Source: an uncultured Gammaproteobacteria bacterium (GTDB lineage Bacteria > Patescibacteriota > Microgenomatia > Levybacterales > UBA12049). Taken from it: DNA of 64,000 bases. The stretch spans positions 77,774 through 141,773 of the forward strand of contig CAYQEJ010000001.1 in assembly GCA_964416505.1 (NCBI GenBank), given 5' to 3'. Below the pieces are notes generated by a model. The model worked only from the letters and a program-made list of their open reading frames with translations. It did not search any database and was not told where the DNA came from. The position numbers and the translations under genes are program-made. This document shows positions 26,405 to 53,096 of this stretch, one piece after another; the stretch's first letter is position 1, and every line of letters starts with the position of its first letter.

Positions 26405-27217
26405 ATGAAATTGAAACACCAAAAAAATAAAAGTGATAATATAGAAAATACTAGCACTCCAGGGGTCACTAAAACGCCTCAGGAAGAAATAAATGTAACA
26501 GAAGCTATGCCAAGACGTTCCCGTTTATCAAAATCGAGTTTTCGCAAATCCAGGAACACTATGATTCTTAGCATATTGGGAATTATTGCAATTCTTTTCC
26601 TGTTGCTGCGATACGGTATTCCCTTAATAAGTGACGCCAGTTTTATAGTGGGACGAGTAACTAGCTCTCCTGACAAAAAAACTATTACAGAAAACGATAA
26701 GTTCCTAGCTAATCCCGACATAGACTTGCCAGAAAAAGCTACAAAAGAAGACCATATAACTATCTCTGGTACTTCTTTAGGAGGAGACAAAGTTAAAATT
26801 TATGTTAACGGAAGCTTTGACAGCGAGGCAGATATCAATGAAGACAGATCATTTGAAGTAAGAATCAAGTTATCCGAAGGTGAAAATATCATTAAAGCAA
26901 AAGCAATTAAAGATAACGGAGAAAGTGAATTTTCAGATTCAGTTATTGTGTCATATATAAAAAAAGGGCCTGAACTTTCCATAGATTCACCAACGGATGG
27001 ATCAGAAATCAAAAATACTAATCCTATTGAAATAAAAGGAAAATCTGATCCAGATACCACAATTACAGTAAATGATTTTCAAGCGGTATCGTCTAGCGAC
27101 GGAGCATACACTTATCTCTTAACACTAAGGGATGGAGGAAACGATATAAAAGTAATTGCTGTTGATTTAGCGGGAAATAAAACTGAGAAATCTATTCACG
27201 TGAACTATTCTCACTAA
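26405..27217 (+). CDS. Membrane-anchored protein with two bacterial Ig-like (Big) repeats
   Basis: Basic N-terminus, one TM (ILSILGIIAILFLLL), then two ~80-aa repeats (…ITISGTSLGGDKVKIYVNG… and …IEIKGKSDPDTTITVNDFQ…) with beta-sandwich-like periodicity. Start is uncertain: ATG 26405 (5 nt after the tRNA) or ATG 26507. Confidence 0.5.
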   Translation: MKLKHQKNKSDNIENTSTPGVTKTPQEEINVTEAMPRRSRLSKSSFRKSRNTMILSILGIIAILFLLLRYGIPLISDASFIVGRVTSSPDKKTITENDKFLANPDIDLPEKATKEDHITISGTSLGGDKVKIYVNGSFDSEADINEDRSFEVRIKLSEGENIIKAKAIKDNGESEFSDSVIVSYIKKGPELSIDSPTDGSEIKNTNPIEIKGKSDPDTTITVNDFQAVSSSDGAYTYLLTLRDGGNDIKVIAVDLAGNKTEKSIHVNYSH

Positions 27218-28376
27218 TTCCTACAAGAACCCATAACCAAATCATAATAAAGCTGTAAAAAAGACTATTCAACAGCAAGCTGTTAAACATAATCCCCCCC
27301 AGCGAAACAACAAGGATTAACGAATAATAATTTTTTTCAACTACTTTTAAATTCATCTTTATGATTCTGTAAAGTAAGAATAAATATACCATTAACCCAG
27401 GAATCCCTGTCGTTGCAAGAAGAAATGCATAGCTATTATCAGAACCTGCCCCAGCACGGTTTGGATAAGGAGCCCAATCTTTTTGTATATATTTTTCTCT
27501 TGCATAACGGTAATTATTAAATCCAACCCCGAGGATAGGATTTTTACTAAAAATTACTACCGCTTCTTTTGCGCTCAAAATTCTCTGCTCTAGAGAAGGT
27601 GTTCTTAGAAGATTCATATTTTCGATATAAAATCTCGGAGATAAAATTATAAAAACAAAGATTAATAGAAAAGATAAAATTAAGATAAGCTTATATTTTT
27701 TTTCTAATATTGCATATAAAACAGTTGCAGATCCTAACATTAAAAGCGCACTTCTAGAGAAAGTAAGAATGATACTTAAAAAGGTTAAGAAAATAATAGT
27801 GTTTAATAAATACTTAAATCTTTTAGAAAATTTATTTTTCTCTTTATATATAAAAACAAATATTAAAAAAGTAACTAAGAATGTTCCTGCGAAATTTGGA
27901 TCAAAAAAAGATGAGAAAAGTCTATACATATGCTCATCCCATCCTTGATAATATAAATTCTTAAGACTTGGATAAAAAATATACTGTAAATATCCGATGA
28001 CCAAAAATATTGTCCCAGTTAGTGTTAGGAGAATATTAATTTTATATTTTTTTAAATTAATATCTCTAAAAACAAAATAGAGCATTGCATACAAAATCCA
28101 CCTAACTAAATAAAGAGCTCCTATCAAAATATTAGAAGTGTTAAAGATTTTAATACTTAAAATTAACGAAACTATAGAAAGTATTAAAAAAATTACAATG
28201 GGCAATTTAAGTTTATATGAAGATTTTTTAACAAAAAGAAACCACGAAATAACAATTCCCAAAATTACTAAATCTACAAAGGCAACATTTATATGATTTG
28301 GTAAATCGAATTTAAGAAACTCTCCTAATGAAAGCGAAATAAAGAAAATCGGAATTAAAATTTTTAGTAATACCAT
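27192..28376 (-). CDS. O-antigen ligase/polymerase-like (Wzy_C) polytopic membrane protein
   Basis: About 10-12 TM helices with a large periplasmic loop near the C-terminal third (NYRYAREKYIQKDWAPYPNRAGAGSDNSY), the arrangement of Wzy/WaaL-family proteins. First gene of the glycan cluster. Confidence 0.45.
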   Translation of the reverse strand: MVLLKILIPIFFISLSLGEFLKFDLPNHINVAFVDLVILGIVISWFLFVKKSSYKLKLPIVIFLILSIVSLILSIKIFNTSNILIGALYLVRWILYAMLYFVFRDINLKKYKINILLTLTGTIFLVIGYLQYIFYPSLKNLYYQGWDEHMYRLFSSFFDPNFAGTFLVTFLIFVFIYKEKNKFSKRFKYLLNTIIFLTFLSIILTFSRSALLMLGSATVLYAILEKKYKLILILSFLLIFVFIILSPRFYIENMNLLRTPSLEQRILSAKEAVVIFSKNPILGVGFNNYRYAREKYIQKDWAPYPNRAGAGSDNSYAFLLATTGIPGLMVYLFLLYRIIKMNLKVVEKNYYSLILVVSLGGIMFNSLLLNSLFYSFIMIWLWVLVGISENSSRE

Positions 28377-29935
28377 ACTTGATCAAGAGTATAAACAGAA
28401 ACATTTGTTAACGTATTTTTGTAAATAAGTTTCCAATTTTTAAATCTTTCCGGCACTCCTCCACCCTGAACAGCTACAAAATTGAATTTATCACCTTTCT
28501 TAACATAACTATTATCTATAAACGGAAAGTTTACATAATATATATTATGAAATCCATATAAAAGAACCTTATCGTCTTCTTTTATATTTTCTTTAAACCA
28601 ATTATCTGTGTCATAGAAATCTCCAAAATTAAAGTTTAAATTTTTTGTCAAAAATTCATTCTTTGATTGTAGTCCTATAATTTTTGGTATATATCGAGCA
28701 TTCGCGGCTCCTCTATAAAATAATGTTATAAAAGCAATTAATAAAACAGTAGATATCAAAAAATTTTTAATTTTTTTTGGTTGATTAAAGATTAATATGG
28801 AAACAGCAACTGATAATACTGGTAAGTATGGCAAAATAAATCTCCCTCCCCCTGTTCTTGGAGTAAAATACCAAACCAATAGAGAAACAAAAACATAAAT
28901 TGGAATTAATTTCTTTTCTTTGTCAAATTTTTTCATATTTATTACCAGTAAAGGCAATACAATTATAAAAATTGGAGAAATTGGATCTGCAGAGAATAAA
29001 AATAAATTAATAAAATCAACGATAAATACTTTTAGGTTAAGTATTTGAATTGGGTTTCCTAAATCATATCCTCCAAAAACTGGATAGAAAGGATTTCCAG
29101 AATTTATATATGAAAAGAATAACCAGGGAAATACAGTTATAAGTGAAGAAGATAAAAAAATAAATGAACTTTTTATTTTTTCCTTTGATTTGTTTTCTAT
29201 AATTAAAAATAAAAATAAAAATATAGGTATTGATCCAAAGGCAATTAACTTCGTAGAAATTGCTAATCCAAGCAACACTCCTGATTCAACTATAAACTTT
29301 TTTTCTCTGTTTTTTAGATATTCTATAATTCCCCAGAATGCCATTACTTCATAAAATGTTCTAATTAAATCCACATATGCAACCGTTGATTCCCATGCAA
29401 CTACTAATGAACTATAAAAAATTATTGAAGCGATTATGGAACCTTTTTCATTTAAAAAATTTCTTGAAATTTTATAAACAGCCAAACTAGTCATTATTCC
29501 AAGGATAAGCTGGATAAGCTTAGGTATAATTTCACTTCCAAACATAAGACCAGGAATAAAAAGCATCTCCCCTAATTTTGGCATTAAGGAGTAATAAAAT
29601 AGTCCTCCTTGAATGTAGAAAATTTTTTGTTCCTGAATAAATATTTTTGGAATTGTTAGGTGATACCAAAGAGCATCAAAAGAAAGTTCAGGGCCTAATG
29701 CACCCACTAAATTAACTAAGGCCAGTGATAGAAAAAGCAACAAATACTTCTTTTCTTTAAATTTCTTAATATTAATTTTTGGAACATCATCTTTTTTATA
29801 CTGAAAATATGTAAAACCACCTATCAAAAAAAGGGTTGTCGAAATAAATACCCAATTCTTCTCTAAATTTCCAGATATCCCCAAAATAAAAATCAAATAG
29901 GAATAAATTCCTATCAAAAAAGCTAAAGCAAACAT
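28364..29935 (-). CDS. GT-C fold glycosyltransferase (GT39/GT83 ArnT/PMT-like) membrane protein
   Basis: 523-aa polytopic protein with an N-terminal ...ELSFDALWYH... DE/first-loop-like motif and many TM helices typical of polyprenyl-phosphate-sugar-dependent transferases. Confidence 0.5.
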   Translation of the reverse strand: MFALAFLIGIYSYLIFILGISGNLEKNWVFISTTLFLIGGFTYFQYKKDDVPKINIKKFKEKKYLLLFLSLALVNLVGALGPELSFDALWYHLTIPKIFIQEQKIFYIQGGLFYYSLMPKLGEMLFIPGLMFGSEIIPKLIQLILGIMTSLAVYKISRNFLNEKGSIIASIIFYSSLVVAWESTVAYVDLIRTFYEVMAFWGIIEYLKNREKKFIVESGVLLGLAISTKLIAFGSIPIFLFLFLIIENKSKEKIKSSFIFLSSSLITVFPWLFFSYINSGNPFYPVFGGYDLGNPIQILNLKVFIVDFINLFLFSADPISPIFIIVLPLLVINMKKFDKEKKLIPIYVFVSLLVWYFTPRTGGGRFILPYLPVLSVAVSILIFNQPKKIKNFLISTVLLIAFITLFYRGAANARYIPKIIGLQSKNEFLTKNLNFNFGDFYDTDNWFKENIKEDDKVLLYGFHNIYYVNFPFIDNSYVKKGDKFNFVAVQGGGVPERFKNWKLIYKNTLTNVSVYTLDQVWYY

Positions 29936-30023
29936 ATCCCCTTTCTACATAACAGATGACTTAGGTAAATAATAATCACAGATACACTCCAGAGCATGAA
30001 AATCCAGTAGGAAATATTCTTAT

Positions 30024-30734
30024 TCATTTTTTTGCGACAGCAATTAAAGAAATGCCAATTGGCATAGGAAATTTTTTTTCTATTTTTTTTACAACTGGAA
30101 CTACTAAATCAAAGGCTGCAACCTGCTTTTGAGTTAGCTGTATTTCTTGTCCTTTTAGATAATTCCTCACTACCCAAGTTACTAAGCCTAATGCATTAAA
30201 CAAAGAAATGTTTTCTAAGTGTAATCCTGTTTTTTCAATTTTTTTCGTAAGTTCTTCTTTTCCATATCTTCTAAAATGACCTAATTCTTTGTCCAAAGTA
30301 TTAAAAGCCCATTTGTTTGCCGGCACGAGAAGAACCAATTTCCCATCGTTCTTAAGAATTTTTTTTATGTTTCTTAAAGCTTTTTCATCTTCCTCAATAT
30401 GCTCTAATACATTTACACATATTACGCTATTAAATTTATTCAGTAATTTTTTTGGAGGATCTTTAGATATATCTAATCGATAAATTTGATTATCTTTAAA
30501 TTTTTTTTCCAAATGACTTACAAGTCCTTCATCTATATCAGTTAAAACTAGATTACCATCTTTTGCAAAATAAGATGAAATATTTCCTATCCCAGCCCCA
30601 ACCTCAATAGCGGGAAATTTTACATGCGGTTTTAAGTTCTCATATATCCATTCGTTATATCTATTTGCGCCTTTCAATACCTCCAAAGTTACAACACCTT
30701 TGTAATCTGAATTTATAACTATTTTTTTTGCCAT
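30024..30734 (-). CDS. Class I SAM-dependent methyltransferase
   Basis: Motif I AIEVGAGIGNISSYFA and motif post-I LVLTDIDEGL; about 236 aa. ATG at 30734 chosen (the ORF track uses an upstream TTG). Confidence 0.75.
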   Translation of the reverse strand: MAKKIVINSDYKGVVTLEVLKGANRYNEWIYENLKPHVKFPAIEVGAGIGNISSYFAKDGNLVLTDIDEGLVSHLEKKFKDNQIYRLDISKDPPKKLLNKFNSVICVNVLEHIEEDEKALRNIKKILKNDGKLVLLVPANKWAFNTLDKELGHFRRYGKEELTKKIEKTGLHLENISLFNALGLVTWVVRNYLKGQEIQLTQKQVAAFDLVVPVVKKIEKKFPMPIGISLIAVAKK

Positions 30735-31465
30735 AATAACCAAAGCTTTCCTCTCACCAGGAATGAGTGAAATGACATTAATATAGCGTGTACTAGACCA
30801 GCTATTCCATCAAGAAATCCAAGTTTTAAGAAAAAATTAACAAAGAACTTACCTTTAGGAAAGAAAATGATTGAAATCCAATTAACTCTCACTCTTTTTT
30901 CAAATAATTCCTCCGACCTCAAATCTGTATAAAAATTAATTTCTTTCAAAAATTCAGAGATCGATTGATGCGGATAATGCTTGATGGAATTAATAAGCTT
31001 ACCAACCTTCTTATCAGTTACCCATGTTTCATGAACTCTTCCTTTCAAACTACCTTTATTTTTATTAAATAGTCTTAAAAGCCTAATTCCTCCTGAATCA
31101 CCATGCAAAAGTGCCTTCCCCCACATAAAATCTATTCTTGGAATTAAAAATCCGGCATATTCATCCGATATAGATTCTTTTATTTCTGTAGCCAAGTCGC
31201 TATCGATCCTCTCATCTGCGTCAACAAATATCACCCATTCATTTGTGGTTTTTGAAACTCCGAAGTTTCTTTGTGCTGAAAAATCTTTATCCAAATCTCT
31301 TTTAAATACCTTAACTTTCTTAGAATCATATCTCTCAATTAAATCCAGAGTTCTATCCGAAGAATTATCATCAATTACTATTATCTCTTCACAAAATTTT
31401 AAATTCTCGATACAATCGATTATATTTTTCTCTTCATTCTTAGTTAAAACGACTGCAGAAATCAT
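30719..31465 (-). CDS. Glycosyltransferase family 2 (GT-A) protein
   Basis: ISAVVLTKNEEKNIIDCIENL... IIVIDDNSSDRT (GT2 DxD region), FVDADE; 248 aa. Confidence 0.8.
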   Translation of the reverse strand: MISAVVLTKNEEKNIIDCIENLKFCEEIIVIDDNSSDRTLDLIERYDSKKVKVFKRDLDKDFSAQRNFGVSKTTNEWVIFVDADERIDSDLATEIKESISDEYAGFLIPRIDFMWGKALLHGDSGGIRLLRLFNKNKGSLKGRVHETWVTDKKVGKLINSIKHYPHQSISEFLKEINFYTDLRSEELFEKRVRVNWISIIFFPKGKFFVNFFLKLGFLDGIAGLVHAILMSFHSFLVRGKLWLLWQKK

Positions 31466-33660
31466 TTATTATTCACCTCTTCAACTATTATATTACTATT
31501 TTCAACACTTACATAAAACTTCTTTTTTTCATTTTTATTCGAGGGGCCATTTCCCAACCACCATGTTAAATATTCGTAATTTTGAATAAAATTAGGAAAT
31601 CCACTTGCCTGATTTTTTTCAATAATATTAAAAGGTTCACCATTTGACTTTGAAACAATTTCTCTTGATGATTTAACCAACTCCGTAAAAGTTATTTTCT
31701 GATTCTTTCGGTCAGGAAACTGGTAAATATTTAAAAATGAAATAATACAAATCAATATAATCGGAAAAAATAATAATCTCTTTTTAAAACTACCCAAAAA
31801 ATAACCTAATCCAATTGCCGCTTGAGGAAAAAACATGGGCAAATATGAAGCTGAATTAGTTTTTGCAAAAATATAAAAAATTGCAGGAATAATTAAAAAA
31901 GCAAATAAAGTGTTTTCATTTGGATTTTTAAATCTACTTCTCATAACTGATATTAATAAAAAAATCATTGGTATAATAAAAATTAAAAGAGCCAAGTATT
32001 CATTTCTTACAAAATAGAATTTACCAATATAATCTGTGATAAACTTCAAGAAAGAACCCCAGCTCTCAGTTTGACTAGGATTAATAGGAGGATATCCAAA
32101 TAAAACCGCAATTCTATATACTCCCCACACAAAAAATTTGAGAGTTTGAGGAAAACCGTTTGAAAAATCGTAAATTATCATTGGAAGTAAAGTTAAAATC
32201 AAAAAAATAAATGAAAGAACTATTATTTTCAAGTCATTCTTAAAACTTAATTTCCATTTTTTATTTTTCAAATATCCGATCGCTAAAACTACGAGCACGG
32301 TAAAAGCTAAAGAAAACGTAGCTAATACAAAGTTATATAGTGCCCCAAGAATAAATATTATTAATGGAAATTTATTTCTATCTCCTTTTACCCATTTAAA
32401 AGTTAGAAAAAATAATGCTAACGTTAACAAAGGAACAAAACTCGTATGATATGGAAGTTGTGAAGAAAAAATTACAAATGGAGAAGTTGCATAAAATAGT
32501 GATGAAAAGAATGCAACTCTAGTATTGAACATAAATCTAGCTACATAATAAATAAGTATTACTACAATTGAATCCAATAAAATTGTAAAGTACGCAGGAG
32601 CAACTGGATTGAAGTCAAAAACCTTTAACAAGAATCCAAGTATATATGTCCAATATGCTCCTTGGTGTAGCCATGGATGACTTGATGCGATTCCTACAAG
32701 AGGTATACTGTGATCCAAAAGCATATCCTTAGCTGACAAATAGTACCAAGCAACATCCGGAATGAAGAATAGTAGTTCTGATATCTTATTAATCCTGAGT
32801 AGAAATGCGAGTAAAAAAATACACAACACTAGAAATGATTCCTTGTTAAATCTGAGAAATAATTCAACAACCATAGCCTTTAAACGTCCGTAGTTTTTTT
32901 TGAAGTAAAGATATCTGCTTTTCATAAATATTTTTTTTATTTCTGAATTTTGTGTTGAGCTTTTTCCTCCAAAATGCACTATCCTAACTGTTGGAGAAAT
33001 ATAATTTTTATATCCTAATTCTTTTATTCTTTTAAATAGGTCAAATTCTTCAAAATACATAAAAAAATTATCATCAAATCCATTTATCTTTTGAAATATT
33101 TTTTTCTTAATTAAAAATGCCGTTCCAGGAAGAACCTCTATAGATCTTTCTTTTCCACTTGAATTATCAAGGTAATAATATTTTTTTAAAAATTTATTTT
33201 TCCTTAAAAAGGAGCTGATAAAACTTAGTGAAAAAATAGCATAAAGTGGCGTAAGTATTCTTGTACCTTGTAATTTATAAATTTTTTTATTTTCTTTATA
33301 AAGAGTTGGTGAAACTGCAGCAACTTTTTTATATTTTTTAAAGATATTTAGAAGATTTTCAAGATTTCCTGACAGTATATATGTATCAGGGTTAAGTATG
33401 AAGACATATTCTCCATTTGCATTATCTACACCTAAATTATTTCCATTCCCATAACCTAAATTCCCTACGTTTTTTATGTATTTAATTTTAGAAAATTTCT
33501 TCTTAAGTTCTTTTGAAATATTATCCACTTCATCATTATCAACAACTATTATTTCAAAAATCTCATTATTCCATTTTTTATTTATTGAATTTATGCATTT
33601 ATATAAATTTTCCTTAGACTTATAATTTACGACTATTATCGATACTATTTTTTTCGCCAT
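31462..33660 (-). CDS. Bifunctional protein: N-terminal GT2 glycosyltransferase fused to a C-terminal polytopic (GT-C-like) membrane domain
   Basis: N-terminus IVSIIVVNYKSKENL...IIVVDNDEVDN...ILNPDT (GT2). Residues ~270-700 form about 12 hydrophobic helices. 732 aa. Confidence 0.65.
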   Translation of the reverse strand: MAKKIVSIIVVNYKSKENLYKCINSINKKWNNEIFEIIVVDNDEVDNISKELKKKFSKIKYIKNVGNLGYGNGNNLGVDNANGEYVFILNPDTYILSGNLENLLNIFKKYKKVAAVSPTLYKENKKIYKLQGTRILTPLYAIFSLSFISSFLRKNKFLKKYYYLDNSSGKERSIEVLPGTAFLIKKKIFQKINGFDDNFFMYFEEFDLFKRIKELGYKNYISPTVRIVHFGGKSSTQNSEIKKIFMKSRYLYFKKNYGRLKAMVVELFLRFNKESFLVLCIFLLAFLLRINKISELLFFIPDVAWYYLSAKDMLLDHSIPLVGIASSHPWLHQGAYWTYILGFLLKVFDFNPVAPAYFTILLDSIVVILIYYVARFMFNTRVAFFSSLFYATSPFVIFSSQLPYHTSFVPLLTLALFFLTFKWVKGDRNKFPLIIFILGALYNFVLATFSLAFTVLVVLAIGYLKNKKWKLSFKNDLKIIVLSFIFLILTLLPMIIYDFSNGFPQTLKFFVWGVYRIAVLFGYPPINPSQTESWGSFLKFITDYIGKFYFVRNEYLALLIFIIPMIFLLISVMRSRFKNPNENTLFAFLIIPAIFYIFAKTNSASYLPMFFPQAAIGLGYFLGSFKKRLLFFPIILICIISFLNIYQFPDRKNQKITFTELVKSSREIVSKSNGEPFNIIEKNQASGFPNFIQNYEYLTWWLGNGPSNKNEKKKFYVSVENSNIIVEEVNNK

Positions 33661-33661
33661 A

Positions 33662-45336: not shown

Positions 45337-45757
45337 TTTTATAAATTGTCCAAAAGGAATTTCCTCTCTTAGATTTTTCTATTTTTTGTATTCTAAAACC
45401 CTTTATTTTTCTTTCTATATTAAATAGCGCAACGTATTTATAATTTTCAAAATGCATGAATTTGTCTATCTCTTTTTCTGAAATTACCTCTACTTTTTTT
45501 GGATACAAATAGTAAGCTCCTAAATAAAACGTTCTAACATCATTACTTACTATCAATATTTTCTCGTTATCCGTATTCTCATTAATAAAAATAAAGAAAT
45601 GATAAAGGTCCCCAAAAATTTTATATCTTTTTTCTTGATCAGAAATAAATACCCATTCTTTAACTTCCGATCTTAATTTAAAAGCATTTAAGAAAATGGC
45701 AGCAATTGAGGTTAGGGTCCAAAGGGCAATTAAAATAATGAAGATTTTCTTACCCAT
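45329..45757 (-). CDS. Hypothetical protein with N-terminal signal-anchor
   Basis: 142 aa, one N-terminal TM. No motifs. Confidence 0.4.
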   Translation of the reverse strand: MGKKIFIILIALWTLTSIAAIFLNAFKLRSEVKEWVFISDQEKRYKIFGDLYHFFIFINENTDNEKILIVSNDVRTFYLGAYYLYPKKVEVISEKEIDKFMHFENYKYVALFNIERKIKGFRIQKIEKSKRGNSFWTIYKNE

Positions 45758-45759
45758 TA

Positions 45760-47541
45760 ATGAGTATTGTGTGCAGAGAATTTAGATTATATTATAGCAT
45801 GGTGCAAGAACCAATAAGCATAGTTATCGTAAGCCTTTTTAGTCTTTCTGTTGTATTCTTGTTATTTTTTATTTTGAAATATATTTTCAAAAAACCTCTA
45901 AATGCTTTTTTTATCGTACTGCTTCTTTCTATCCCTCCCATCATAAGCGTTTTCAGAATAGGAGTTTACGAAAGCGGAGATTTTTCACTTCATATTTATA
46001 GAACTATCTCTTTTTTTGAGAACTTAAAAGCTATGAATTTTTCCCCTTCCTGGGGGTATATGTTGAATGGTGGATTTGGATATCCACTATTTCTCTTTAT
46101 TAATCCAATTCCATACTATTTAATTTCAATCTTTCATTTTCTAGGACTTTCATTTATATGGAGCATGAAATCTTATCTTATTTTTTCATATATTTTCTCA
46201 GGAATTTCAATGTATTTATTTACAAAAAAAACTTTTAAAAATGAACTTGCTGCGCTAACTTCTGCAATTTTTTATCTATACACTCCATATCATTTAATTG
46301 ACATGCATTTTAGAGTTGATATCGGTGAAATATTTGCATTCGCTCTTTTTCCAACTCTTTGCTTATTTTTAGTAAAAGCCATAGAAAATAAAAAAGGCAC
46401 AGATTACATTTTGCTAGGAATAGCATGGGGACTATTTATTCTCACACATCAAGCAATTGCAATTTTGTCATTACTTTTTTTTGGAATTTTTATCTTGTTT
46501 GGTTTTATAGGGTTTGGCCTGAAAACAATGAAAGAAAATTATAAAATAATATTCTCATTTTTAATCGGTCTAATAATTTCTTCCTACTCCTGGACGTCTT
46601 ACTTAACCTATTCCCAATACACAATGATTAAAAAAGTAGTATTTGACATAAATTTATTTAATATTTCAGATTTACTATTCACTAAGTGGAGACTTGGATT
46701 TTTGTTTCAAGGTCCACATGGAGAATTAGGTCATATCATTGGGTACACTCAGGTAATTATTTTCATATATTTCATATATTTAATACTTTTAAAAAAAATT
46801 AAAAGAAATAAAAAAACCGCTATATTTCTACTTTCATCTATTACACTCTTAACATTTATGATAACCCCAAGCTCTTACCTTATATGGCAAACAGTTCCTA
46901 TGATAAAAAACGTCCTACTTTCCTATAGACTTTTATTGTTCATAGGATTCTCTACCTCAGTCCTCGCAGGATTATTAACATTTGAAATAAAGAATAAAAA
47001 AATAGTTTATTTATTAATTTTTATAACTATCTCATACACTATTCTTAATTGGGGAAATAGAAGAGTAATTCCTCAAATTAATGATTCCTACCTAATCTCA
47101 AATTTGGGATCTAGCACATCAGCCGGAGAGGGATTAGGAGGTCTTGGAAATCCAATATGGACAGGAGACAAAATAGCATGGAAGAGTAAATATAATGAAA
47201 AAGTTGAAATTTTAAATGGTGACGGAAAAATTTCCCAAATTCTTGAGACTCCAACATCTAATTTATATCTGATTGATGCTAATACAAATCTTAAGATAAA
47301 TGAAAATACATGGTATTTTCCAGGTTGGCGTGCTTTTTTAAATAACAAAGAAATTCAGATTATCCCTGACAATAAAACCCATCCGGGAATCATAAATCTC
47401 TACATACCTCAAGGACTTTGGAAACTTGAGATTAAATATGAAGATTTAATATATCTAAAAATCTTAAAGATAATTAGTTTTAGTTCTTTAGGATTTTTTA
47501 TTTTGTTTTACCTTAAGAAGAGATATTTTAATTCTTCCTGA
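45760..47541 (+). CDS. Hypothetical polytopic membrane protein (GT-C-like) with C-terminal soluble beta-rich domain
   Basis: 593 aa, about 13 TMs then a ~170-aa hydrophilic C-terminus. The start is only 2 nt from the divergent gene start at 45757, so the true start may be the downstream ATG at 45799. Confidence 0.45.
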   Translation: MSIVCREFRLYYSMVQEPISIVIVSLFSLSVVFLLFFILKYIFKKPLNAFFIVLLLSIPPIISVFRIGVYESGDFSLHIYRTISFFENLKAMNFSPSWGYMLNGGFGYPLFLFINPIPYYLISIFHFLGLSFIWSMKSYLIFSYIFSGISMYLFTKKTFKNELAALTSAIFYLYTPYHLIDMHFRVDIGEIFAFALFPTLCLFLVKAIENKKGTDYILLGIAWGLFILTHQAIAILSLLFFGIFILFGFIGFGLKTMKENYKIIFSFLIGLIISSYSWTSYLTYSQYTMIKKVVFDINLFNISDLLFTKWRLGFLFQGPHGELGHIIGYTQVIIFIYFIYLILLKKIKRNKKTAIFLLSSITLLTFMITPSSYLIWQTVPMIKNVLLSYRLLLFIGFSTSVLAGLLTFEIKNKKIVYLLIFITISYTILNWGNRRVIPQINDSYLISNLGSSTSAGEGLGGLGNPIWTGDKIAWKSKYNEKVEILNGDGKISQILETPTSNLYLIDANTNLKINENTWYFPGWRAFLNNKEIQIIPDNKTHPGIINLYIPQGLWKLEIKYEDLIYLKILKIISFSSLGFFILFYLKKRYFNSS

Positions 47542-49147
47542 GCACATAATTTCCTAAAACTAGAATATCCATCCCAGTTCCACTAAAAACTGAGATTGCG
47601 TCTTTAGGAGAGCATGCGATAGGCATATTCATTATATTAAGACTCGTATTTAACACTACTCCCATCCCAGATTTTTCTTTCATTTTTTTTATTAAATCAT
47701 AATAAATTCTATTTTCTTTTCGAGTAACCGACTGAACCCTTGCTGTATTATCTACATGAGTTATAGCAGGTAGTTTTTTTGTTTTGACATCAAAAGTCAG
47801 AGTCATATATGGAGATTTATAAAAATCTTTAAAATAAATCTCAGCATCTTCTTCTAAAACGCTAGGAGCAAATGGCCTAAAAGTCTCGCGAAACTTTATA
47901 AGCCTATTTAATTTATCTTTCATTTCTAGATTTGCAGGATTCGCTAAAATCGATCTGTTACCTAATGCTCGTGATCCAAATTCAAGTCTTCCCTGAAACC
48001 ATCCAACAATTTCGTTATTTAAAATTCTTTCCACTACAAAATTTATCAAATCATTATCATTTAAATATTCATAATTAAGTTTTAAAGTATCTAGATCTTT
48101 TTTTATTTCTCTGTTTGTATAATTTGGTCCAAGATATGGAGATTGTAATTTTTCGAATTTGAACCCTAAGTTATTTGCAACATGAAGAGCTGCACCAAAC
48201 GCAGTTCCAGGATCATCTGCAACTGGGGGAATAAAAATATTTTCTATATATTCTGATTTCAATAAGGCAGAATTCATTATACAGTTTAGCGCTACACCAC
48301 CCGACAAACACAGATTTTTTGAATCCTCTTTATCGCTAAGATTTTTAAGAAGCTCCAAACAAGCCTCTTCAAGTTTTTTTTGAGCTGCATAAGCAATGTC
48401 TTTTTCGCGCTGCGTAACTGGGTCTGTACTTAATCTATTTTTTCCAAGAACTTCTTTAAGCTTTTTAGTGAATCTTGGTTGTTGTCTTGAAACCGAATTT
48501 TGAAATATCTTTTCATCCAACTTATATTCTCCGTTCTTTACAATAAGTATTTTGTCCATTTTTTCCTTCAAATCTTTTCTGTATTTACCATAGCTTGCTA
48601 ATCCCATCACTTTATACTCATCTCTATTCATGTCAAAACCTAAAAACTGAGTTATCAAAGAATAAAAAATACCCAAACTATTTGGTTTCTCAAATGTCTT
48701 CAAGCATTTGATTCTTCTTCCTTTTCCATATCCTAGCGTCGTTGAAATATTGTCACCGGAATAGTCTATTGTCATTATTTTTGCTTCTTTAAATCCAGAA
48801 ATCAGATATGCGCTTGCTCTATGCGCTGCATGATGATCAACTAGTTTAATCTTAGGACAGTAACCAAATTGAAATTCCATATACTCTTTAATATCGTTCG
48901 TAATGTTGGTATATGTGTTGACGTAAAAAGCTAAATAATCCACTTCTTTAATAGATATACCTGCTTTTTTTAAGCAAAACTGAATAGATTTTTTAGGAAA
49001 TTGCCCAGGTGCGTGCTTTACCCTAATCAACCTTTCCTCCTCAACAGCAGCAATTATTTTTGAATTTTTAATAAGTACCGCAGCGCCATCATGATTAACG
49101 GTAAAACTTCCACTCACTCCTAAAATATAAATATCCTTTTTTTTCAT
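47528..49147 (-). CDS. Carbamoyltransferase, NodU/CmcH family
   Basis: N-terminus ILGVSGSFTVNHDGAAVLIKNSKIIAAVEEERLIRVKHAPGQFP and the HHAAHRASAY motif are diagnostic of NodU/CmcH O-carbamoyltransferases. 539 aa. Confidence 0.85.
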   Translation of the reverse strand: MKKKDIYILGVSGSFTVNHDGAAVLIKNSKIIAAVEEERLIRVKHAPGQFPKKSIQFCLKKAGISIKEVDYLAFYVNTYTNITNDIKEYMEFQFGYCPKIKLVDHHAAHRASAYLISGFKEAKIMTIDYSGDNISTTLGYGKGRRIKCLKTFEKPNSLGIFYSLITQFLGFDMNRDEYKVMGLASYGKYRKDLKEKMDKILIVKNGEYKLDEKIFQNSVSRQQPRFTKKLKEVLGKNRLSTDPVTQREKDIAYAAQKKLEEACLELLKNLSDKEDSKNLCLSGGVALNCIMNSALLKSEYIENIFIPPVADDPGTAFGAALHVANNLGFKFEKLQSPYLGPNYTNREIKKDLDTLKLNYEYLNDNDLINFVVERILNNEIVGWFQGRLEFGSRALGNRSILANPANLEMKDKLNRLIKFRETFRPFAPSVLEEDAEIYFKDFYKSPYMTLTFDVKTKKLPAITHVDNTARVQSVTRKENRIYYDLIKKMKEKSGMGVVLNTSLNIMNMPIACSPKDAISVFSGTGMDILVLGNYVLRKN

Positions 49148-49214
49148 TAGTTCCTTAATTAAAATGTGAGTTGTATTATAATATAGCGATTATTTACTAA
49201 CAATTATCTAATTA

Positions 49215-49940
49215 ATGAAAAAGCTATTTCTATCTTTTTGTATTCCCGTCTATAACGAAGAAGATTTAATTCTAAAAAATCTTAAAAAGATTATAAAAAA
49301 CCTAGATGAATTAGTAGGGAAAAATAACTACGAAATCCTTTTTGCCGAAAATGGAAGTACCGATAAAACCAGAGATGTTTTAAAGCAAGTAAAAAATAAA
49401 AATGTAAAATATTTTACTATAGGGAAAAAAGGGCATGGTCTTGCAATGAAATCATTAGTAGAAAATGCCAAAGGAGAAAATATTTTATTATCAGCGATAG
49501 ATCTACCATTTGGATTTTCTGATTTAAAAAACATGCTTCCTCTTTCCAGTAAATTTAATGTTATTTTTGGTTCAAAAAAACATAAAGATTCAAAATTACA
49601 TTATCCTTTAAGAAGAAAAATTTCATCAAAAATTTATATGAGTCTTTTGAAATTTCTTTTTAGAGTAAACATTAGAGATACACAGGGTTCAATTTTTATC
49701 AATAAAGAAAGCGTAAGAAAATTCATAGATCTATGCGATTCAGATAATGCCTTCTTTTGTTCTCAGATCGCAATTTATTCTATAAAAAATAATCTCTCTG
49801 TATGTGAAGTTCCAATTGAAATGGACAAAAAATCTATAAGGAAATCCAAATATAAGATTGTTGGAGATGGTAGTAAAATGCTTAGATCAATGATTCGTGA
49901 ATATATTAGGAGTCAGTTTTTTTTCCAAAGATCTAAATAA
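49215..49940 (+). CDS. GT2 glycosyltransferase (polyprenyl-phosphate sugar synthase-like)
   Basis: LSFCIPVYNEEDLI...LFAENGSTDKT...SAIDLPF; 241 aa GT-A. Confidence 0.7.
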   Translation: MKKLFLSFCIPVYNEEDLILKNLKKIIKNLDELVGKNNYEILFAENGSTDKTRDVLKQVKNKNVKYFTIGKKGHGLAMKSLVENAKGENILLSAIDLPFGFSDLKNMLPLSSKFNVIFGSKKHKDSKLHYPLRRKISSKIYMSLLKFLFRVNIRDTQGSIFINKESVRKFIDLCDSDNAFFCSQIAIYSIKNNLSVCEVPIEMDKKSIRKSKYKIVGDGSKMLRSMIREYIRSQFFFQRSK

Positions 49941-50911
49941 ACCTCAGAGACATTTTCCCAGGTTTGCTTTTTAGCCCATAAATATCCTTTTTTTGTAAAT
50001 TTATCAATTTCTTTTGGATTATTTAAAAAATATTTTATTTTCCTTACAAGGTTTTCTGAACTATCTGCGCAAATAATAAATTTATGAAATGGAGACATTT
50101 TTAGATAATCTTCTTTTACTGGATTATCATACATTGCAAAAACAAGTCTTTTATTTATTAATGCCTCCAAAATAGATAAGTATCTACTTACAAAAGCAAA
50201 ATTATTTCTAATTAAATAATCTTCAACGTTCTCTTTAAAACCTGTAGGATTATATTCTTTAAGTTTTTCAAAAAAATTTCCATCTCCAACTATCTTAAAT
50301 CTAAATTTAGGATAATCTTTTTTAAGCAAATCAATAGCTTTAGCATAATCTAGTACATTTGTTTGCTCATCTAGCCTTCCAATGAAAACTGCCGATTGCC
50401 GGTTTGTAATTTTTTTTTGTTTTCCTGGCTTCACTCCCCCGTAAATTATATAATCAGCATTAGTGAAGTACCATTTTTTTATAAACTCCCCTACTACAAT
50501 ATTCCCATTTGCAATTATTTCAGATAACTTTCTGATTAATATTGCTTTTTTTGATATTGGATAATTTTCATACCCATGAAATGTTATAAAACTTTTTTTA
50601 CCCGGAAACAATAATCTAAGAGGTAAATATTGATAATAGACATCATGGGCGTGAACTATCTTTGCCTTGCTAAAAATATTTTTATTTTTTATAAACCAAT
50701 ACCAGATAAAAAATTTTCTCAACTTACCTACGCTACTTTGAGGGATTCTAATTATTTTAATTCCCTCTAATTCGTTATCTTCACCCTGAGATTCTGTAAT
50801 TACGGTTACTTTATGATTCTTTTTTATCAATATTTTAGAAATTTCATAGACATGTTTTTCCACTCCACCAATGTCCGGATAAAACCTTCTGGTTAAAAAA
50901 ATAATTCTCAT
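49913..50911 (-). CDS. Glycosyltransferase family 4 (GT-B) protein
   Basis: MRIIFLTRRFYPDIGGVEKHV is a GT4 N-terminal motif; 332 aa. Confidence 0.7.
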   Translation of the reverse strand: MRIIFLTRRFYPDIGGVEKHVYEISKILIKKNHKVTVITESQGEDNELEGIKIIRIPQSSVGKLRKFFIWYWFIKNKNIFSKAKIVHAHDVYYQYLPLRLLFPGKKSFITFHGYENYPISKKAILIRKLSEIIANGNIVVGEFIKKWYFTNADYIIYGGVKPGKQKKITNRQSAVFIGRLDEQTNVLDYAKAIDLLKKDYPKFRFKIVGDGNFFEKLKEYNPTGFKENVEDYLIRNNFAFVSRYLSILEALINKRLVFAMYDNPVKEDYLKMSPFHKFIICADSSENLVRKIKYFLNNPKEIDKFTKKGYLWAKKQTWENVSEVYLDLWKKN

Positions 50912-51675
50912 AATTTAATCGCTTTTATTACAATATTATTTGGATTTTTTCGTTTAATGATTTTTGATACAAATTTTTTGAATAGATAATTATCTGAAAA
51001 TGCAAAAAATGTTTTTGATGCTAGGACCCTGAACCCCGCAATCTCCAACTCTGCTTTTATTAAATTTTCGTCATATGTCCTAACATGTCCGCTTGGGTTA
51101 TTTTTCATTTTATTTAGTCCTTCATTCATTGGAACTGAAACAATCAATGTTCCTCCAATTTTCATCAATAAATTTACTTTGCTCAAAACAGAAAATGTTT
51201 TACTTGGAGGAATATGTTCTAGAACCTCTAAAATAAGAACTGCATCGAAAAAATTAGGTTTATAATTAAGAGTATAAATTGATTGCAGTGAAAATTCTCC
51301 TTTATACTTTTTTTTAAGAATTACCAGTGACCTTTTAGAAAAATCATTTGCATAAAGATTAATGTTTTTATCTCCACTTATCAGTTCTTCAATAAATCCC
51401 ATCCCTGCACCTATATCAAGAACTCGAATTTGTTTTCTTGGTAAAAATCTTACTGCTGTTTTTATTCTATCTTTAGTCATCCCATCTTGATCTGATAATT
51501 TAACATCTTTAGAATAGATATCGTCCCAAAGCTTTGGAGTATTTAAATCTTTAATCTCGGGATATTTTTTTATATAAGTTTCTGCTAACTCTTTATATTT
51601 TTTTGCTGAAGCCAAATTTTGACGTTTTCTTTCTATTTCAAATGGAGAATCTTTCATAAGAGAGAATTTTACCAT
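50908..51675 (-). CDS. Class I SAM-dependent methyltransferase
   Basis: Motif I VLDIGAGMGFIEELI, AVLILEVLEHI. Confidence 0.75.
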   Translation of the reverse strand: MVKFSLMKDSPFEIERKRQNLASAKKYKELAETYIKKYPEIKDLNTPKLWDDIYSKDVKLSDQDGMTKDRIKTAVRFLPRKQIRVLDIGAGMGFIEELISGDKNINLYANDFSKRSLVILKKKYKGEFSLQSIYTLNYKPNFFDAVLILEVLEHIPPSKTFSVLSKVNLLMKIGGTLIVSVPMNEGLNKMKNNPSGHVRTYDENLIKAELEIAGFRVLASKTFFAFSDNYLFKKFVSKIIKRKNPNNIVIKAIKL

Positions 51676-51681
51676 AAATTT

Positions 51682-53016
51682 TTAGGACAAATGCTTTATC
51701 AATAGAAATATTTTATTTAAAATCTCCATTTTTATTTTTCCTGAGTCTGATAATGCGCCATTTACATATGTAGCATCCTGCCAAAAAATTTTAAAGATGA
51801 AAATAGATAGAGCTTGGTGCAAGATAAAAGCAAATGTAACCAAAGATATAAATACTATAGAAAACTTTTTTCTTAAATATGTGATTATCTCTGCAATTCC
51901 AAATACTAAAATGGGAAGGATACTTATAAAATATCTTAACGAGTAACTTGCAGCATCCCAAGCATGGTAACTTAGAATAAGTAAAAAATCTAAAATTACC
52001 ACAAGACAAAATACTTTTCCTAAAAAGTTTTTTCTTTTATAGAATAGATATAAACCTAAAAATGAAAATAAAATTAACGGGGTATAAAATAACAATCCTA
52101 ATTTTTGACTGAAAATTATTTCTTTAAAATATGCAAAAAAAACAAATTCAGTCTCTGCTTTTAAAATATGTGGGATTAGAATAAATTTTCCTTGCCCAAA
52201 ACATAAAATTAATAGTTGAGGTAAATAACCCATACACCCTCCTAAAATTAACACAAAAACTTTTTTTACTAAATCTTTTTTAAAAGTTATAAAGAATGAA
52301 AATATTGGAAATACAATGAATAAACCATCTTGAAATCTATTAGATATCATTAACCCAACAACTAATGACTGTATGAACAAATTTATTACACTAGGTCTTT
52401 TTTTATACTCAATAAATAGATAAATGATTATAGAAGCAGCGAAAAAAGAAAAAGGATGTGAGTTGTTCACATCAAACCCAGAATAATAGAATAAATTAGT
52501 AGCAAATAAAATTAATATAATTGAAAGTGCTACTACTTCTTTTCTATATAGCTTCAAAAGACTCTTAGATAAAAAAATTAAACCTAAAACGGAAAATAAA
52601 ATATTCCCAATTCCTAATGTAATTTGATAAATATCACTGTAACCGTTTCTAACAAAATTCATACCAAATTTTTGTAGTATGAGAATTAAAATATCTCCCA
52701 CGAAGAAAAAAGGAAGCCAAACTACGGATACTCCAAGAGAGAAATTATAGGTTGTTTTTTTTATGATATCTGAGATTTTGGGATTGGAATCATTAGAAAC
52801 AGGAAGGTTGTTATTTACCTTATCCCACGGATGACTCATTTCATCAGTTATGTCGATATTTTTAGAAAAATAAATAGATCGCGTAAAAGCTAAATAATAT
52901 CTTCCATCCCCATAAACAGCTTGACCAACCAGTTTAAACTCTATTAGAAAAGTAACTACCAGAACGATAAATATAGATAAAAAATAATATTTCCAAAATT
53001 TATTTTTCTTTAGCAT
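51682..53016 (-). CDS. Hypothetical polytopic membrane protein (GT-C-like)
   Basis: About 12 TM helices. The ORF-track start (TTG 53058) reads through tRNA-Val, so the ATG at 53016 (MLKKNKFW) was chosen. Confidence 0.45.
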   Translation of the reverse strand: MLKKNKFWKYYFLSIFIVLVVTFLIEFKLVGQAVYGDGRYYLAFTRSIYFSKNIDITDEMSHPWDKVNNNLPVSNDSNPKISDIIKKTTYNFSLGVSVVWLPFFFVGDILILILQKFGMNFVRNGYSDIYQITLGIGNILFSVLGLIFLSKSLLKLYRKEVVALSIILILFATNLFYYSGFDVNNSHPFSFFAASIIIYLFIEYKKRPSVINLFIQSLVVGLMISNRFQDGLFIVFPIFSFFITFKKDLVKKVFVLILGGCMGYLPQLLILCFGQGKFILIPHILKAETEFVFFAYFKEIIFSQKLGLLFYTPLILFSFLGLYLFYKRKNFLGKVFCLVVILDFLLILSYHAWDAASYSLRYFISILPILVFGIAEIITYLRKKFSIVFISLVTFAFILHQALSIFIFKIFWQDATYVNGALSDSGKIKMEILNKIFLLIKHLS

Positions 53017-53022
53017 ATTAAG

Positions 53023-53096
53023 TGGACTTGAGAGGATTCGAACCTCTGACCTTTTCAATGTGAATGAAACGCTCTAACCAGCTGAGCTACAAATCC
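53023..53096 (-). tRNA. tRNA-Val (anticodon CAC)
   Basis: Reverse complement: acceptor GGATTTG/CAAGTCC, D-arm GCTC-AGCTGGTTA-GAGC, anticodon stem TTTCA/TGAAA with loop TTCACAT (CAC), T-arm AGAGG-TTCGAAT-CCTCT. No CCA encoded. Confidence 0.85.

Follow-up and report, generated by a model that had tools for sequence, protein, structure and literature searches.

A probable resident cell-surface glycan locus in a fixed chromosomal slot of a Levybacterales (Patescibacteriota) genome

In the present study, we analysed a stretch of 64,000 nucleotides (hereafter the window; positions 77,774 to 141,773 of contig CAYQEJ010000001.1, assembly GCA_964416505.1, placed by GTDB in Patescibacteriota, Microgenomatia, Levybacterales, UBA12049) and, within it, a block of glycan-biosynthesis genes at 27192-53016. 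All coordinates are those of the whole window unless a relative's locus is named. This block is probably a resident cell-surface glycan locus, which occupies a fixed chromosomal slot and is not a mobile island, and in which a polyprenyl-phosphate pathway of the Gram-positive type is combined with decoration by glycosyltransferases of the GT-C fold. The family and fold assignments, the coupling of a donor synthase to a GT-C enzyme, the position of a membrane-embedded glycosyltransferase of family 2 (GT2), or of its fused form (fusion B), beside the Wzx flippase, and the pairing of a Wzy_C protein with an immunoglobulin (Ig)-like protein were established directly; functions were assigned from family and fold, and the order of the biosynthetic steps was inferred from them. 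An initial annotation of this DNA predicted a cell-surface glycan or glycoconjugate locus operating through lipid-linked intermediates, which the family assignments support.

The block comprises 21 consecutive open reading frames (ORFs), not the approximately 22 previously counted, which cover 25,647 of its 25,825 bases (99%). Many neighbouring ORFs overlap by 1-28 bases, and approximately seven transcription units may be recognised, with alternating orientation in the right half. Two tRNA genes located with ARAGORN are the conserved landmarks at its ends: tRNA-Thr(cgt) on the left (26325-26399, forward strand) and tRNA-Val(cac) on the right (53022-53096, reverse strand), the latter adjoining the signal peptidase and ParB genes. 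Both had been named as the bounds of the block and both are present, but tRNA-Thr lies 793 bp to the left of the block start previously given, with the Ig-like gene (26405-27217) in between. Since the listed start of the Ig-like ORF (26372) overlaps tRNA-Thr, the ATG at 26405 is the likelier start, and the ATG at 53016 is likewise preferred for the right-edge ORF because its listed TTG start (53058) overlaps tRNA-Val. The flanks carry housekeeping genes (DNA polymerase III alpha, the F-type ATP synthase operon, GatA/GatB, isoleucyl-tRNA synthetase [IleRS], signal peptidase, and ParB) and wall genes of the monoderm type (MurT/GatD, FtsW/RodA, and an L,D-transpeptidase).

The slot was traced in loci of up to 22 kb each. 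A ParB query at one genome per species retrieved 80 loci, the best with 89-92% identity and the named ones from Levyibacteriota, Gottesmanbacteria, and other Microgenomates. The order ParB-signal peptidase-tRNA-Val is conserved from Levyibacteriota to Gottesmanbacteria, tRNA-Val following the signal peptidase gene in most of 41 relatives; tRNA-Val(cac) is absent from the four closest relatives (ParB 90-92%; L005, L006, L007, and L057, locus position ~11400). At the opposite end, the Wzy_C gene, the convergent Ig-like gene, and tRNA-Thr recur in L047, L055, and L082, and the first two also in L054, the sequence of which ends before the position of tRNA-Thr. Past the signal peptidase gene, homologous glycan genes were found in every relative with enough sequence. 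The slot of L055 (~5.2 kb) holds a GT2, a glycosyltransferase of family 4 (GT4), Wzy_C, a small GT-C, and the Ig-like protein, and that of L047 (Levyibacteriota, ~8.5 kb) a GT2, a GT4, a membrane GT2, Wzx, a further GT2, Wzy_C, and the Ig-like protein, the gene of which is followed directly by tRNA-Thr and the ATP synthase epsilon gene. The slot measures 26.6 kb in the window; joining L006 and L085, which overlap by 393 identical bases, gives at least 31.5 kb for the closest lineage.

Within these ends, gene content varies in a manner that does not follow the relatedness of the flanks. Flank proteins of the closest lineage show 80-91% amino-acid identity to those of the window (ParB 91%), and the flank DNA is 76% identical over 6.1 kb, whereas the shared block genes reach only 42-64% amino-acid identity, and the middle is occupied by a DegT aminotransferase, sugar C-methyltransferases, a UDP-glucose dehydrogenase, RmlD-like reductases, and a GT17. 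In contrast, the block of the more distant JACOXU010000001.1 (GCA_016182185.1; ParB 75%, signal peptidase 66%) is nearly collinear with that of the window. Identities to JACOXU are 72% for the sugar epimerase/dehydratase at 42916-43986, 67% for the GT2 at 40399-41115, 57% for the GT2 at 30719-31465, 56% for the GT4 at 34627-35730, 48% for both Wzx and the methyltransferase at 35727-36554, 45% for fusion B, 43% for the GT4 at 49913-50911, 42% for fusion A, the 142-aa protein at 45329-45757, and the 432-aa GT-C at 44038-45336, 39% for the 604-aa GT-C at 41115-42929, and 38% for the GT-C at 45760-47541. Four window genes are missing from JACOXU, namely, the carbamoyltransferase, its neighbouring GT2, the FkbM-like gene, and the right-edge GT-C; where the window has the last of these, beside the signal peptidase gene and tRNA-Val, JACOXU carries a 618-aa Laminin_G_3 protein (L167 17361-19217). 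Content is stable among strains, L001 being collinear with 98.6% nucleotide identity and L166 with 100%; several assemblies of SRA runs also encode proteins identical to those of the window. The discordance between flank relatedness and block type points to cassette replacement in a fixed slot or to the differential retention of old types, and the slot behaves like a serotype locus, with conserved ends and backbone and a content that varies between lineages. The comparison of related genomes that had been called for hence bears out differing gene content. Conserved gene order together with matching composition in distant relatives had been named as a result that would speak against a variable, horizontally exchanged locus; order is largely kept in JACOXU (38-72% identity), but composition still deviates.

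Regarding composition, the block is present as a low-GC region at the predicted place, with a GC content in 2-kb windows of 0.23-0.31 across 27-53 kb and 0.32-0.39 outside, and it is more AT-rich than the flanking housekeeping genes, with a mean GC content per gene of 0.279 versus 0.347 (Mann-Whitney p = 8e-8). This difference, a dinucleotide shift, tRNA genes at both ends, and the content that differs from the closest relatives would all fit the recent acquisition of a genomic island through integration at a tRNA gene, an explanation that we regard as very improbable. No integrase, recombinase, or transposase domain was found in the 21 block ORFs or the scanned flanking ORFs, no att-like direct repeat of the tRNA ends occurs in 25800-53800 (only short AT-rich chance matches), and no conspecific genome with an empty slot was found; distant relatives keep the two tRNAs and the two edge genes in synteny, the slot is filled with homologous glycan genes in all relatives with enough sequence, and the distant JACOXU is nearly collinear. 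Moreover, the GC deficit falls mainly on codon positions 1 and 2 (0.35 in the block versus 0.46 outside, and 0.28 versus 0.34), the third position being nearly equal (0.21 versus 0.24), and the region after the signal peptidase gene is lower in GC than the housekeeping side in 37 of the 41 relatives. The AT shift is therefore probably a property of a fast-evolving class of loci in an AT-biased lineage and does not demonstrate recent import into this genome. Phe, Tyr, Met, Ile, Asn, and Lys (FYMINK) account for 44% of residues in the block and 32% outside; since the soluble block proteins alone still reach 42%, membrane content does not explain the shift. AT-richness here probably reflects fast-evolving, FYMINK-rich proteins under AT mutation pressure rather than recent import. 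Thus, of the proposed view of a variable or horizontally exchanged locus, content variation stands, whereas the tRNA bracket and AT-richness do not serve as hallmarks of acquisition; GC and dinucleotides do deviate, with nearly equal third positions and an AT shift shared by most relatives.

Two envelope-modifying genes outside the block, encoding a GT-C of family GT87 (826-1953) and an Acyl_transf_3 protein (59289-60275), have GC contents of 0.27 and 0.26 and are AT-rich like the block. The latter is only 41-43% identical in the closest relatives, in which the neighbouring IleRS is 79-84% identical.

Families were assigned with Pfam and NCBIfam for all block ORFs (ORFs of at least 100 aa being scanned throughout) and with PDB sequence searches for chosen proteins. 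The block totals one Wzx, one Wzy_C protein, two GT4s, seven GT-C-type proteins, and five GT2 domains, of which two are joined to a GT-C module and three stand alone, together with the sugar-modifying functions, namely, three clear S-adenosylmethionine (SAM)-dependent methyltransferases, one sub-threshold FkbM-like protein, a short-chain dehydrogenase/reductase (SDR), and a carbamoyltransferase. The gene list of the initial annotation proved essentially right, and the counts required correction: the Wzy/WaaL-like protein, the three methyltransferases, the Wzx flippase, the SDR epimerase/dehydratase, and the NodU/CmcH carbamoyltransferase were each recovered in Pfam or NCBIfam, so that functions for methylation and carbamoylation are encoded, and at least five GT-C-like membrane proteins became seven, whereas the GT2 domains number one more than the four predicted and only two of three GT4s lie inside, the third (25044-26213) being left of tRNA-Thr.

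The most informative members of the block are GT2 and GT-C proteins that occur as pairs or as single chains. The GT2 at 40399-41115 (forward strand) lacks a transmembrane (TM) helix and belongs to the DPMS/GtrB/ArnC type (DPMS, dolichyl-phosphate mannose synthase): its only PDB matches are DPMS 5mlz of P. furiosus (8e-16), GtrB 5ekp (4e-8), and ArnC (9e-8), and its NCBIfam matches are AglJ, PgfS, and dolichyl-phosphate hexose transferase. It overlaps by one base with the gene of a 604-aa, Pfam-less protein of GT-C fold that has a C-terminal extracytoplasmic domain (41115-42929, forward strand). Since the homologues of both are joined in a single chain, GT2 N-terminal, in the relatives P0144 and P0146, the two form a synthase/GT-C pair by Rosetta-stone logic, as had been suggested for parallel polyprenyl-phosphate-sugar synthase and GT-C partners. 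Of the two DPM1/GtrB-like synthases predicted, this one is solid; the second, at 49215-49940 (forward strand), is a small TM-less GT2 (Pfam GT2 1.4e-17) that is probably DPMS/PgfS-like, with weaker support from NCBIfam PgfS (2e-12) and AglJ and a single PDB match, DPMS 5mlz, at E = 2e-4.

Natural GT2-GT-C fusions constitute two conserved families in the locus. Fusion A (31462-33660, reverse strand; Pfam Glycos_transf_2 7.6e-23 and PMT_2 1.5e-8) begins with a rhamnosyltransferase-like GT2 in residues 1-300, NCBIfam TIGR01556 matching residues 26-300, ends with a GT-C (PMT_2) module, and has full-length fused homologues in L033, L036, L042, and JACOXU (37-42% identity). Fusion B (37793-40330, reverse strand; GT2 and PMT_2) consists of a membrane-embedded GT2 (residues 1 to ~340) and a GT-C module (~340-845), and has at least 120 full-length family members of 40-51% identity, which are named only 'glycosyltransferase'. 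Its model has a predicted local distance difference test (pLDDT) score of 90.2, and the polytopic modules of fusion B and of 41115-42929, N-terminal in the latter, are superposable on solved GT-C enzymes. Invariant acidic residues follow the first GT-C helix in both families, D355-E356 in the motif H-M-D-E-W-H-Q of fusion B and D63, after TM1, in the motif D-F-x-F-T-Y-G-P of 41115-42929. In fusion B, residues 306-321 form a Lys/Arg-rich linker ahead of the first GT-C helix, and by the positive-inside rule, its GT2 would be cytoplasmic and its GT-C active site extracytoplasmic; the same rule was used to place the conserved acidic loop of 41115-42929 on its predicted side of the membrane. L047 encodes a separate GT2 of 317 aa that shares 46% identity with residues 1-304 of fusion B and is likewise directly upstream of Wzx; because this homologue is unfused and in the same position, fusion B arose by the joining of a core membrane GT2 to a GT-C. 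In the loci where it could be followed (L047, L085, L167/L168, L015, and L018), Wzx always follows directly on fusion B or on the unfused counterpart of its GT2.

Two roles considered for the GT2 of fusion B did not hold up. A DPM1/GtrB-type synthase is disfavoured both by sequence, the profile being generic GT-A with TarS, TarP, and GalT1 as best matches and GtrB/ArnC at only 1e-4, and by fold, hyaluronan synthase and PcManGT (PDB 6yv7), an archaeal membrane-embedded GT2, ranking above GtrB (17.1), DPMS (16.3), and ArnC (16.1). A processive GT2 like cellulose synthase is weakened by the lack of the QxxRW motif in the family.

The two remaining unannotated membrane proteins, without a direct Pfam match, are of the GT-C type as judged from family transitivity through PMT_2-positive homologues. 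For the divergent 432-aa protein at 44038-45336 (reverse strand), seven of 26 homologues carry PF13231 PMT_2, and the JACOXU orthologue is annotated PMT_2, albeit weakly; for the divergent 444-aa protein at the right edge (51682-53016, reverse strand), 16 of 40 homologues sampled from a family of 4,307 representatives match PMT_2 (best E = 2e-7), and Asp37 after TM1 is invariant. The hhalign comparisons with the fusion B family gave probabilities of only 8% and 10%, respectively, and the profile of the 444-aa family had no match in the PDB. A small single-TM protein of 142 aa without a Pfam or NCBIfam match (45329-45757, reverse strand) is the upstream partner of the 432-aa GT-C, the pair being kept in L027 and JACOXU at 34-42% identity, and may be an accessory subunit of it. 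The other two GT-C genes are at 28364-29935 (reverse strand), which is PMT_2/ArnT-like with 11 TM helices (Pfam PMT_2 9.8e-11, weak NCBIfam ArnT and Agl23), and at 45760-47541 (forward strand; Pfam PTPS_related 1.4e-7 and PMT_2 1.4e-6), with homologues in 11 loci at 33-41% identity. Paralogous GT-C and GT2 genes may be confused with each other at 25-40% identity in the tblastn mapping on which such comparisons between loci depend. In a 666-aa, Pfam-less protein beside a small GT2 in the closest lineage (L085 486-2486), the resemblance to the 41115-42929 family is confined to the C-terminal extracytoplasmic domain (hhalign probability 78%; motif Y-P-Y-D ... D-N-I-P-N-x-S-R-N-P), which may represent a reusable acceptor-binding module.

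Taken together, these assignments suggest the following pathway. GT4s and GT2s would assemble an oligosaccharide on polyprenyl phosphate at the inner face of the membrane, using nucleoside diphosphate (NDP)-sugars tailored by the SDR, and this oligosaccharide would then be O-methylated and O-carbamoylated. A priming WbaP/WecA-like enzyme had been suggested to lie nearby or elsewhere; no phosphoglycosyltransferase (PF00953 or PF02397) was found among the scanned ORFs of the 64-kb window, nor among the called genes of L085, L167, and L168. Because of this absence from 64 kb, priming may depend on an enzyme encoded elsewhere, of the WecA/TagO type as in the ordinary route, or on the membrane GT2 just upstream of Wzx, which would yield a monophosphate-linked intermediate as in lactococcal WpsA/B. 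Glycans that are primed on undecaprenyl phosphate (C55-P), flipped by Wzx, and ligated by GT-C enzymes have been described for lactococcal WpsA/B and for GacI/J/K/L (PMC10821137). The Wzx-type flippase would export the lipid-linked unit, the single Wzy_C protein would ligate or polymerise it outside the membrane, and the seven GT-C-fold enzymes would add side sugars there, with polyprenyl-phosphate monosaccharides made by the DPMS-like GT2s as donors. Cassettes would be gained, lost, or replaced between lineages, resulting in serotype-like variation of the surface.

A bolder version of this pathway is that single-chain enzymes, comprising either a membrane GT2 and a GT-C followed by Wzx or a DPMS-like synthase and the Pfam-less GT-C, make their donor inside and use it outside, giving a variable coat that is independent of a phosphoglycosyltransferase. 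We propose it only tentatively, and in a form that covers both the making of a polyprenyl-phosphate sugar and priming on polyprenyl monophosphate.

Several observations weigh against the locus being a resident slot with a Gram-positive-type pathway. Neither a Wzz/polysaccharide co-polymerase (PCP) nor a LytR-CpsA-Psr (LCP) ligase (LytR_cpsA_psr) was detected in the scanned ORFs of the window, and the same holds for an ABC exporter and a small flippase of the GtrA type; the single Wzx-type protein could serve as the flippase for lipid-linked monosaccharides too. The fold of the GT2 of fusion B is nearer to hyaluronan synthase and PcManGT, and its profile nearest to TarS, so that the synthesis of a polyprenyl-phosphate sugar may be regarded as a candidate role. 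The Wzy_C protein lacks the canonical WaaL histidine. The dinucleotide signature differs moderately from that of the flanks (delta* 96 versus 54, x1000, p = 0.013), and some cassettes may be of foreign origin. In addition, synteny of the left end rests on L047, L054, L055, and L082, the sequences of the closest relatives and of JACOXU stopping short of it.

The Wzy_C protein (27192-28376, reverse strand; Pfam Wzy_C 6.6e-18, ~12 TM helices) is a polytopic member of the WaaL/PglL/Wzy superfamily and a candidate glycan ligase or polymerase. The only PDB match of its family profile is WaaL 7tpg (E = 0.01). The histidine of the 'HN' motif is the canonical catalytic residue of WaaL and PglL; in this family, it aligns with Asp/Glu, for which reason the protein is a divergent member of the superfamily, and polymerase, ligase, and O-oligosaccharyltransferase are not separable from its sequence. 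Its convergent neighbour at the left edge, where an Ig-like surface protein had been predicted, is a bitopic protein (26405-27217, forward strand; Pfam Glucodextran_B 6e-24, with sub-threshold Big_6, Big_13, and Cadherin-like matches) with an N-terminal tail, a single TM helix, and two Ig-like domains. Homologues of the pair are adjacent and convergent in L047, L054, L055, and L082, and the Ig-like protein may be an acceptor or partner of the Wzy_C protein. Its identity as the pilus protein PamR of the candidate phyla radiation (CPR) was rejected, the NCBIfam score being 27.7 bits against a cut-off of 300 and the TM helix being N-terminal, not C-terminal as in PamR.

This pairing, which is kept across Microgenomates even in minimal slots of 5 kb, raises the possibility that the locus mainly serves protein O-glycosylation, with the Wzy_C protein as an oligosaccharyltransferase like PglL/TfpO, the GT-Cs acting in the manner of Pmt/Pgf, and the Ig-like protein, pilins, or an S-layer as targets. 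In L047, the Wzy_C protein is the sole extracytoplasmic transferase and must attach the glycan to something, and attachment is accordingly the more economical of its roles; both small GT2s match S. mutans PgfS and archaeal AglJ, Wzx matches the NCBIfam 'O-glycosylation flippase' (4e-28), and streptococcal GtrB with GT-Cs glycosylates Ser/Thr-rich regions of membrane proteins (PMC12041528). However, all matches to protein-glycosylation equivalogs fall far below their cut-offs, no marked Ser/Thr-rich region is present in the Ig-like protein, the catalytic histidine of PglL/WaaL is not kept, and gene adjacency does not prove an enzyme-acceptor relation. We therefore hold this reading to be possible but doubtful.

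A lipoglycan or wall glycan built mostly outside the cell by successive GT-Cs, as in mycobacterial lipomannan/lipoarabinomannan (LM/LAM) and arabinogalactan (Ppm1, PimE, MptA/B, and Aft), would account for seven GT-Cs in 26 kb and for the GT87 (PimE-family) gene at 826-1953, and the JACOXU block also contains a GT87; the small DPMS-like GT2s without TM helices would each need a membrane partner, like mycobacterial Ppm1. This appears unlikely to us, as the core of the slot consists of cytoplasmic GT4s and GT2s, Wzx, and Wzy_C, and there is no evidence of a phosphatidylinositol or other lipid-anchor pathway. Since the core in L047 lacks any GT-C, the GT-Cs resemble later decorating additions rather than builders of a backbone.

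Alternatively, the permissive slot may have collected several independent modules, namely, the Wzx/Wzy_C core and three or four GT2/GT-C decoration systems with different acceptors. The alternating transcription units of the right half, the absence from JACOXU of the carbamoyltransferase together with the GT2 beside it, of the FkbM-like gene, and of the GT-C at the right edge, and the restriction of minimal slots to the core are consistent with this view. Conversely, a backbone order of ~16 genes is kept between the window and JACOXU at identities of 38-72%, which suggests selection for togetherness, and one flippase serves the entire block; independent modules thus remain a speculative alternative to a single resident glycan locus.

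By analogy with described systems, the locus appears to be a combination of the Gram-positive multi-component transmembrane glycosylation machinery with a Wzx-dependent repeat-unit pathway (PMC8035078, PMC11127046, PMC10821137); the lack of a phosphoglycosyltransferase, of Wzz, and of an LCP ligase in the scanned ORFs sets it apart from a canonical O-antigen or capsule cluster. With the lactococcal polysaccharide pellicle (PSP; WpsA/B-WpsC..F-WpsG-WpsH/I-WpsJ, PMC10821137), it shares a DPMS-like GT2 that has no TM helix and depends on a membrane partner, several glycosyltransferases for elongation in the cytoplasm, a flippase of the Wzx type, extracellular enzymes of GT-C fold, and a cluster without a phosphoglycosyltransferase whose content varies between strains in a conserved frame. 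However, the window has neither a backbone module for rhamnan (Rgp) nor RmlABCD; the partner of its DPMS-like GT2 is a 600-aa GT-C instead of the small GacJ/WpsB; seven GT-Cs replace the two or three of PSP, along with a Wzy_C protein and two GT2-GT-C fusions; and the monophosphate linkage of PSP is only putative here. GtrA/B/C, CsbB/GtcA/YfhO, GacI/J/K/L, and the GT136 systems (PMC8035078, PMC11127046, PMC7389260) likewise pair a synthase of the DPMS/GtrB/ArnC class with a GT-C, and in the GacK and GT136 systems the flippase is of the MOP/MATE type, not GtrA, as the sole flippase candidate of the window is of the Wzx type. These three- and four-component systems differ in that the window lacks a flippase of the GtrA/small multidrug resistance (SMR) type, synthase and GT-C are linked by fusion or by translational coupling, and many parallel GT-Cs share at most two clear synthases.

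Wzx/Wzy clusters for O-antigen and capsule resemble the locus in Wzx, a protein of the Wzy_C family, several GT4s and GT2s, sugar-modifying enzymes, low GC content, a fixed chromosomal slot, and serotype-like replacement of content; they differ in having an initiating phosphoglycosyltransferase, Wzz/PCP, Wza/outer-membrane polysaccharide export (OPX) protein, and a lipid A-core acceptor, which is not expected here because the envelope is of the monoderm type, whereas in the window the Wzy_C protein lacks the catalytic histidine of WaaL and GT-Cs dominate. In S-layer N-glycosylation of Haloferax volcanii, AglD-AglR-AglS (PMC3871713) similarly comprise a membrane GT2, a flippase resembling Wzx, and a GT-C supplied with dolichyl- or polyprenyl-phosphate sugars, and the archaeal PcManGT is a further membrane-embedded GT2 for comparison; in the window, GT2 and GT-C form one polypeptide, no oligosaccharyltransferase of the AglB/STT3 type is present, and the organism is a bacterium. 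Mycobacterial Ppm1 (Rv2051c, PMC3485146) also has a TM-less DPMS-type domain fused or adjacent to a polytopic membrane anchor, but this anchor is an Lnt-like acyltransferase, whereas the partner in the window is a GT-C and a candidate consumer of the product. The distinctive features of the locus are its seven GT-Cs in 26 kb, the two GT2-GT-C fusion families, the Pfam-less GT-C with its DPMS-like synthase, and the Wzy_C/Ig-like pair at the edge.

Patescibacteria, the genomes of which measure roughly 1 Mb, presumably live attached to host cells, which makes the surface central to their biology. The contigs of the relatives measure 0.6-1.09 Mb, and a glycan locus of ~26 kb would amount to 2-3% of the genome, and an investment that is both heavy and variable between lineages is what would be expected of a determinant for host attachment or for phage or host recognition. 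The fusions and the Pfam-less GT-C family, with high-confidence models, provide Rosetta-stone evidence of which synthase feeds which GT-C. For annotation, low GC content combined with flanking tRNAs misled here as a sign of an island, the genome being AT-rich and reduced. If true, the single-chain proposal would give ultra-small monoderm bacteria a variable glycan coat that is made independently of a phosphoglycosyltransferase. Our full-text literature search, in which not all journals were covered, found no description of GT-C, O-antigen-ligase, or similar loci in CPR/Patescibacteria.

The remaining block genes are described in their order from the left. A SAM-dependent methyltransferase (30024-30743, reverse strand; Pfam Methyltransf_12, _11, and _23) is followed by a GT2 with a C-terminal membrane segment (30719-31465, reverse strand; Pfam Glycos_transf_2 4e-21), a core gene that adjoins Wzy_C in minimal loci and has homologues of 41-57% identity in L047, L033, L036, L054, and JACOXU. 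The possible FkbM-type methyltransferase (33662-34630, reverse strand) is a weak assignment, Pfam Methyltransf_21 scoring 21.8 bits (E = 2.2e-4) against a cut-off of 22.7 bits, and had no homologue in any relative locus compared, JACOXU included. Next are a GT4 (34627-35730, reverse strand; Pfam Glycos_transf_1 1.7e-18), a SAM-dependent methyltransferase (35727-36554, reverse strand; Pfam Methyltransf_11 3.8e-24), and the MOP/Wzx-type flippase (36551-37774, reverse strand; Pfam Polysacc_synt_3 1.7e-67), for which NCBIfam also gave MOP flippase (4e-49) and TuaB (2e-40). The extended SDR (42916-43986, reverse strand; Pfam Epimerase 6e-41 and GDP_Man_Dehyd 1e-40) is an NDP-sugar epimerase/dehydratase, its NCBIfam matches to dTDP-glucose 4,6-dehydratase (1e-42) and GalE (3e-35) both being below cut-off. 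The O-carbamoyltransferase of the NodU/CmcH type (47528-49147, reverse strand; Pfam Carbam_trans_C 4.9e-66 and Carbam_trans_N 3.9e-58; NCBIfam NodU 2.9e-43, below cut-off) is a lineage-specific accessory, absent from JACOXU and the L006 lineage. The GT4 at 49913-50911 (reverse strand; Pfam Glyco_transf_4 5.9e-14) is the most widely conserved gene of the slot, being found in 28 loci at 39-66% identity and usually near tRNA-Val, and homologues (45-54% identity) of the adjacent SAM-dependent methyltransferase (50908-51675, reverse strand; Pfam Methyltransf_11 and _23) precede it in L018, L049, L050, and L052.

Outside the block, the left flank carries a pair of genes for a GDE_C-like glycoside hydrolase and the GT4 at 25044-26213 (together 23661-26213), which is kept in metagenomic relatives in both gene orders and may represent a storage-glucan or compatible-solute module that is not part of the surface locus. 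A metagenome scan with this GT4 returned only relatives of 49-58% identity, and since their GDE_C/GT4 pair is not beside the glycan slot, the scan was uninformative on the left boundary. Around the versions of the slot, the sole gene of a mobile element that was seen is an IS200-like transposase (Y1_Tnp) at L055 19282-19950, ~2.5 kb beyond tRNA-Thr. MurT/GatD, which amidate peptidoglycan to iso-glutamine and are typical of Gram-positive walls, are encoded at 5810-7833 in the left flank, as is a GGDEF diguanylate cyclase at 11519-12358. The IleRS gene (56334-59243) is beside FtsW in all relatives (L005-L030), with a bimodal identity among Levyibacteriota of 62-84% versus 32-38% at similar ParB identity, which suggests two IleRS types in the phylum and possibly a xenologous replacement. 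Between ParB and FtsW, the window encodes a 157-aa protein with three TM helices and no Pfam match (54764-55237), and essentially every relative has a homologue of 38-66% identity there.

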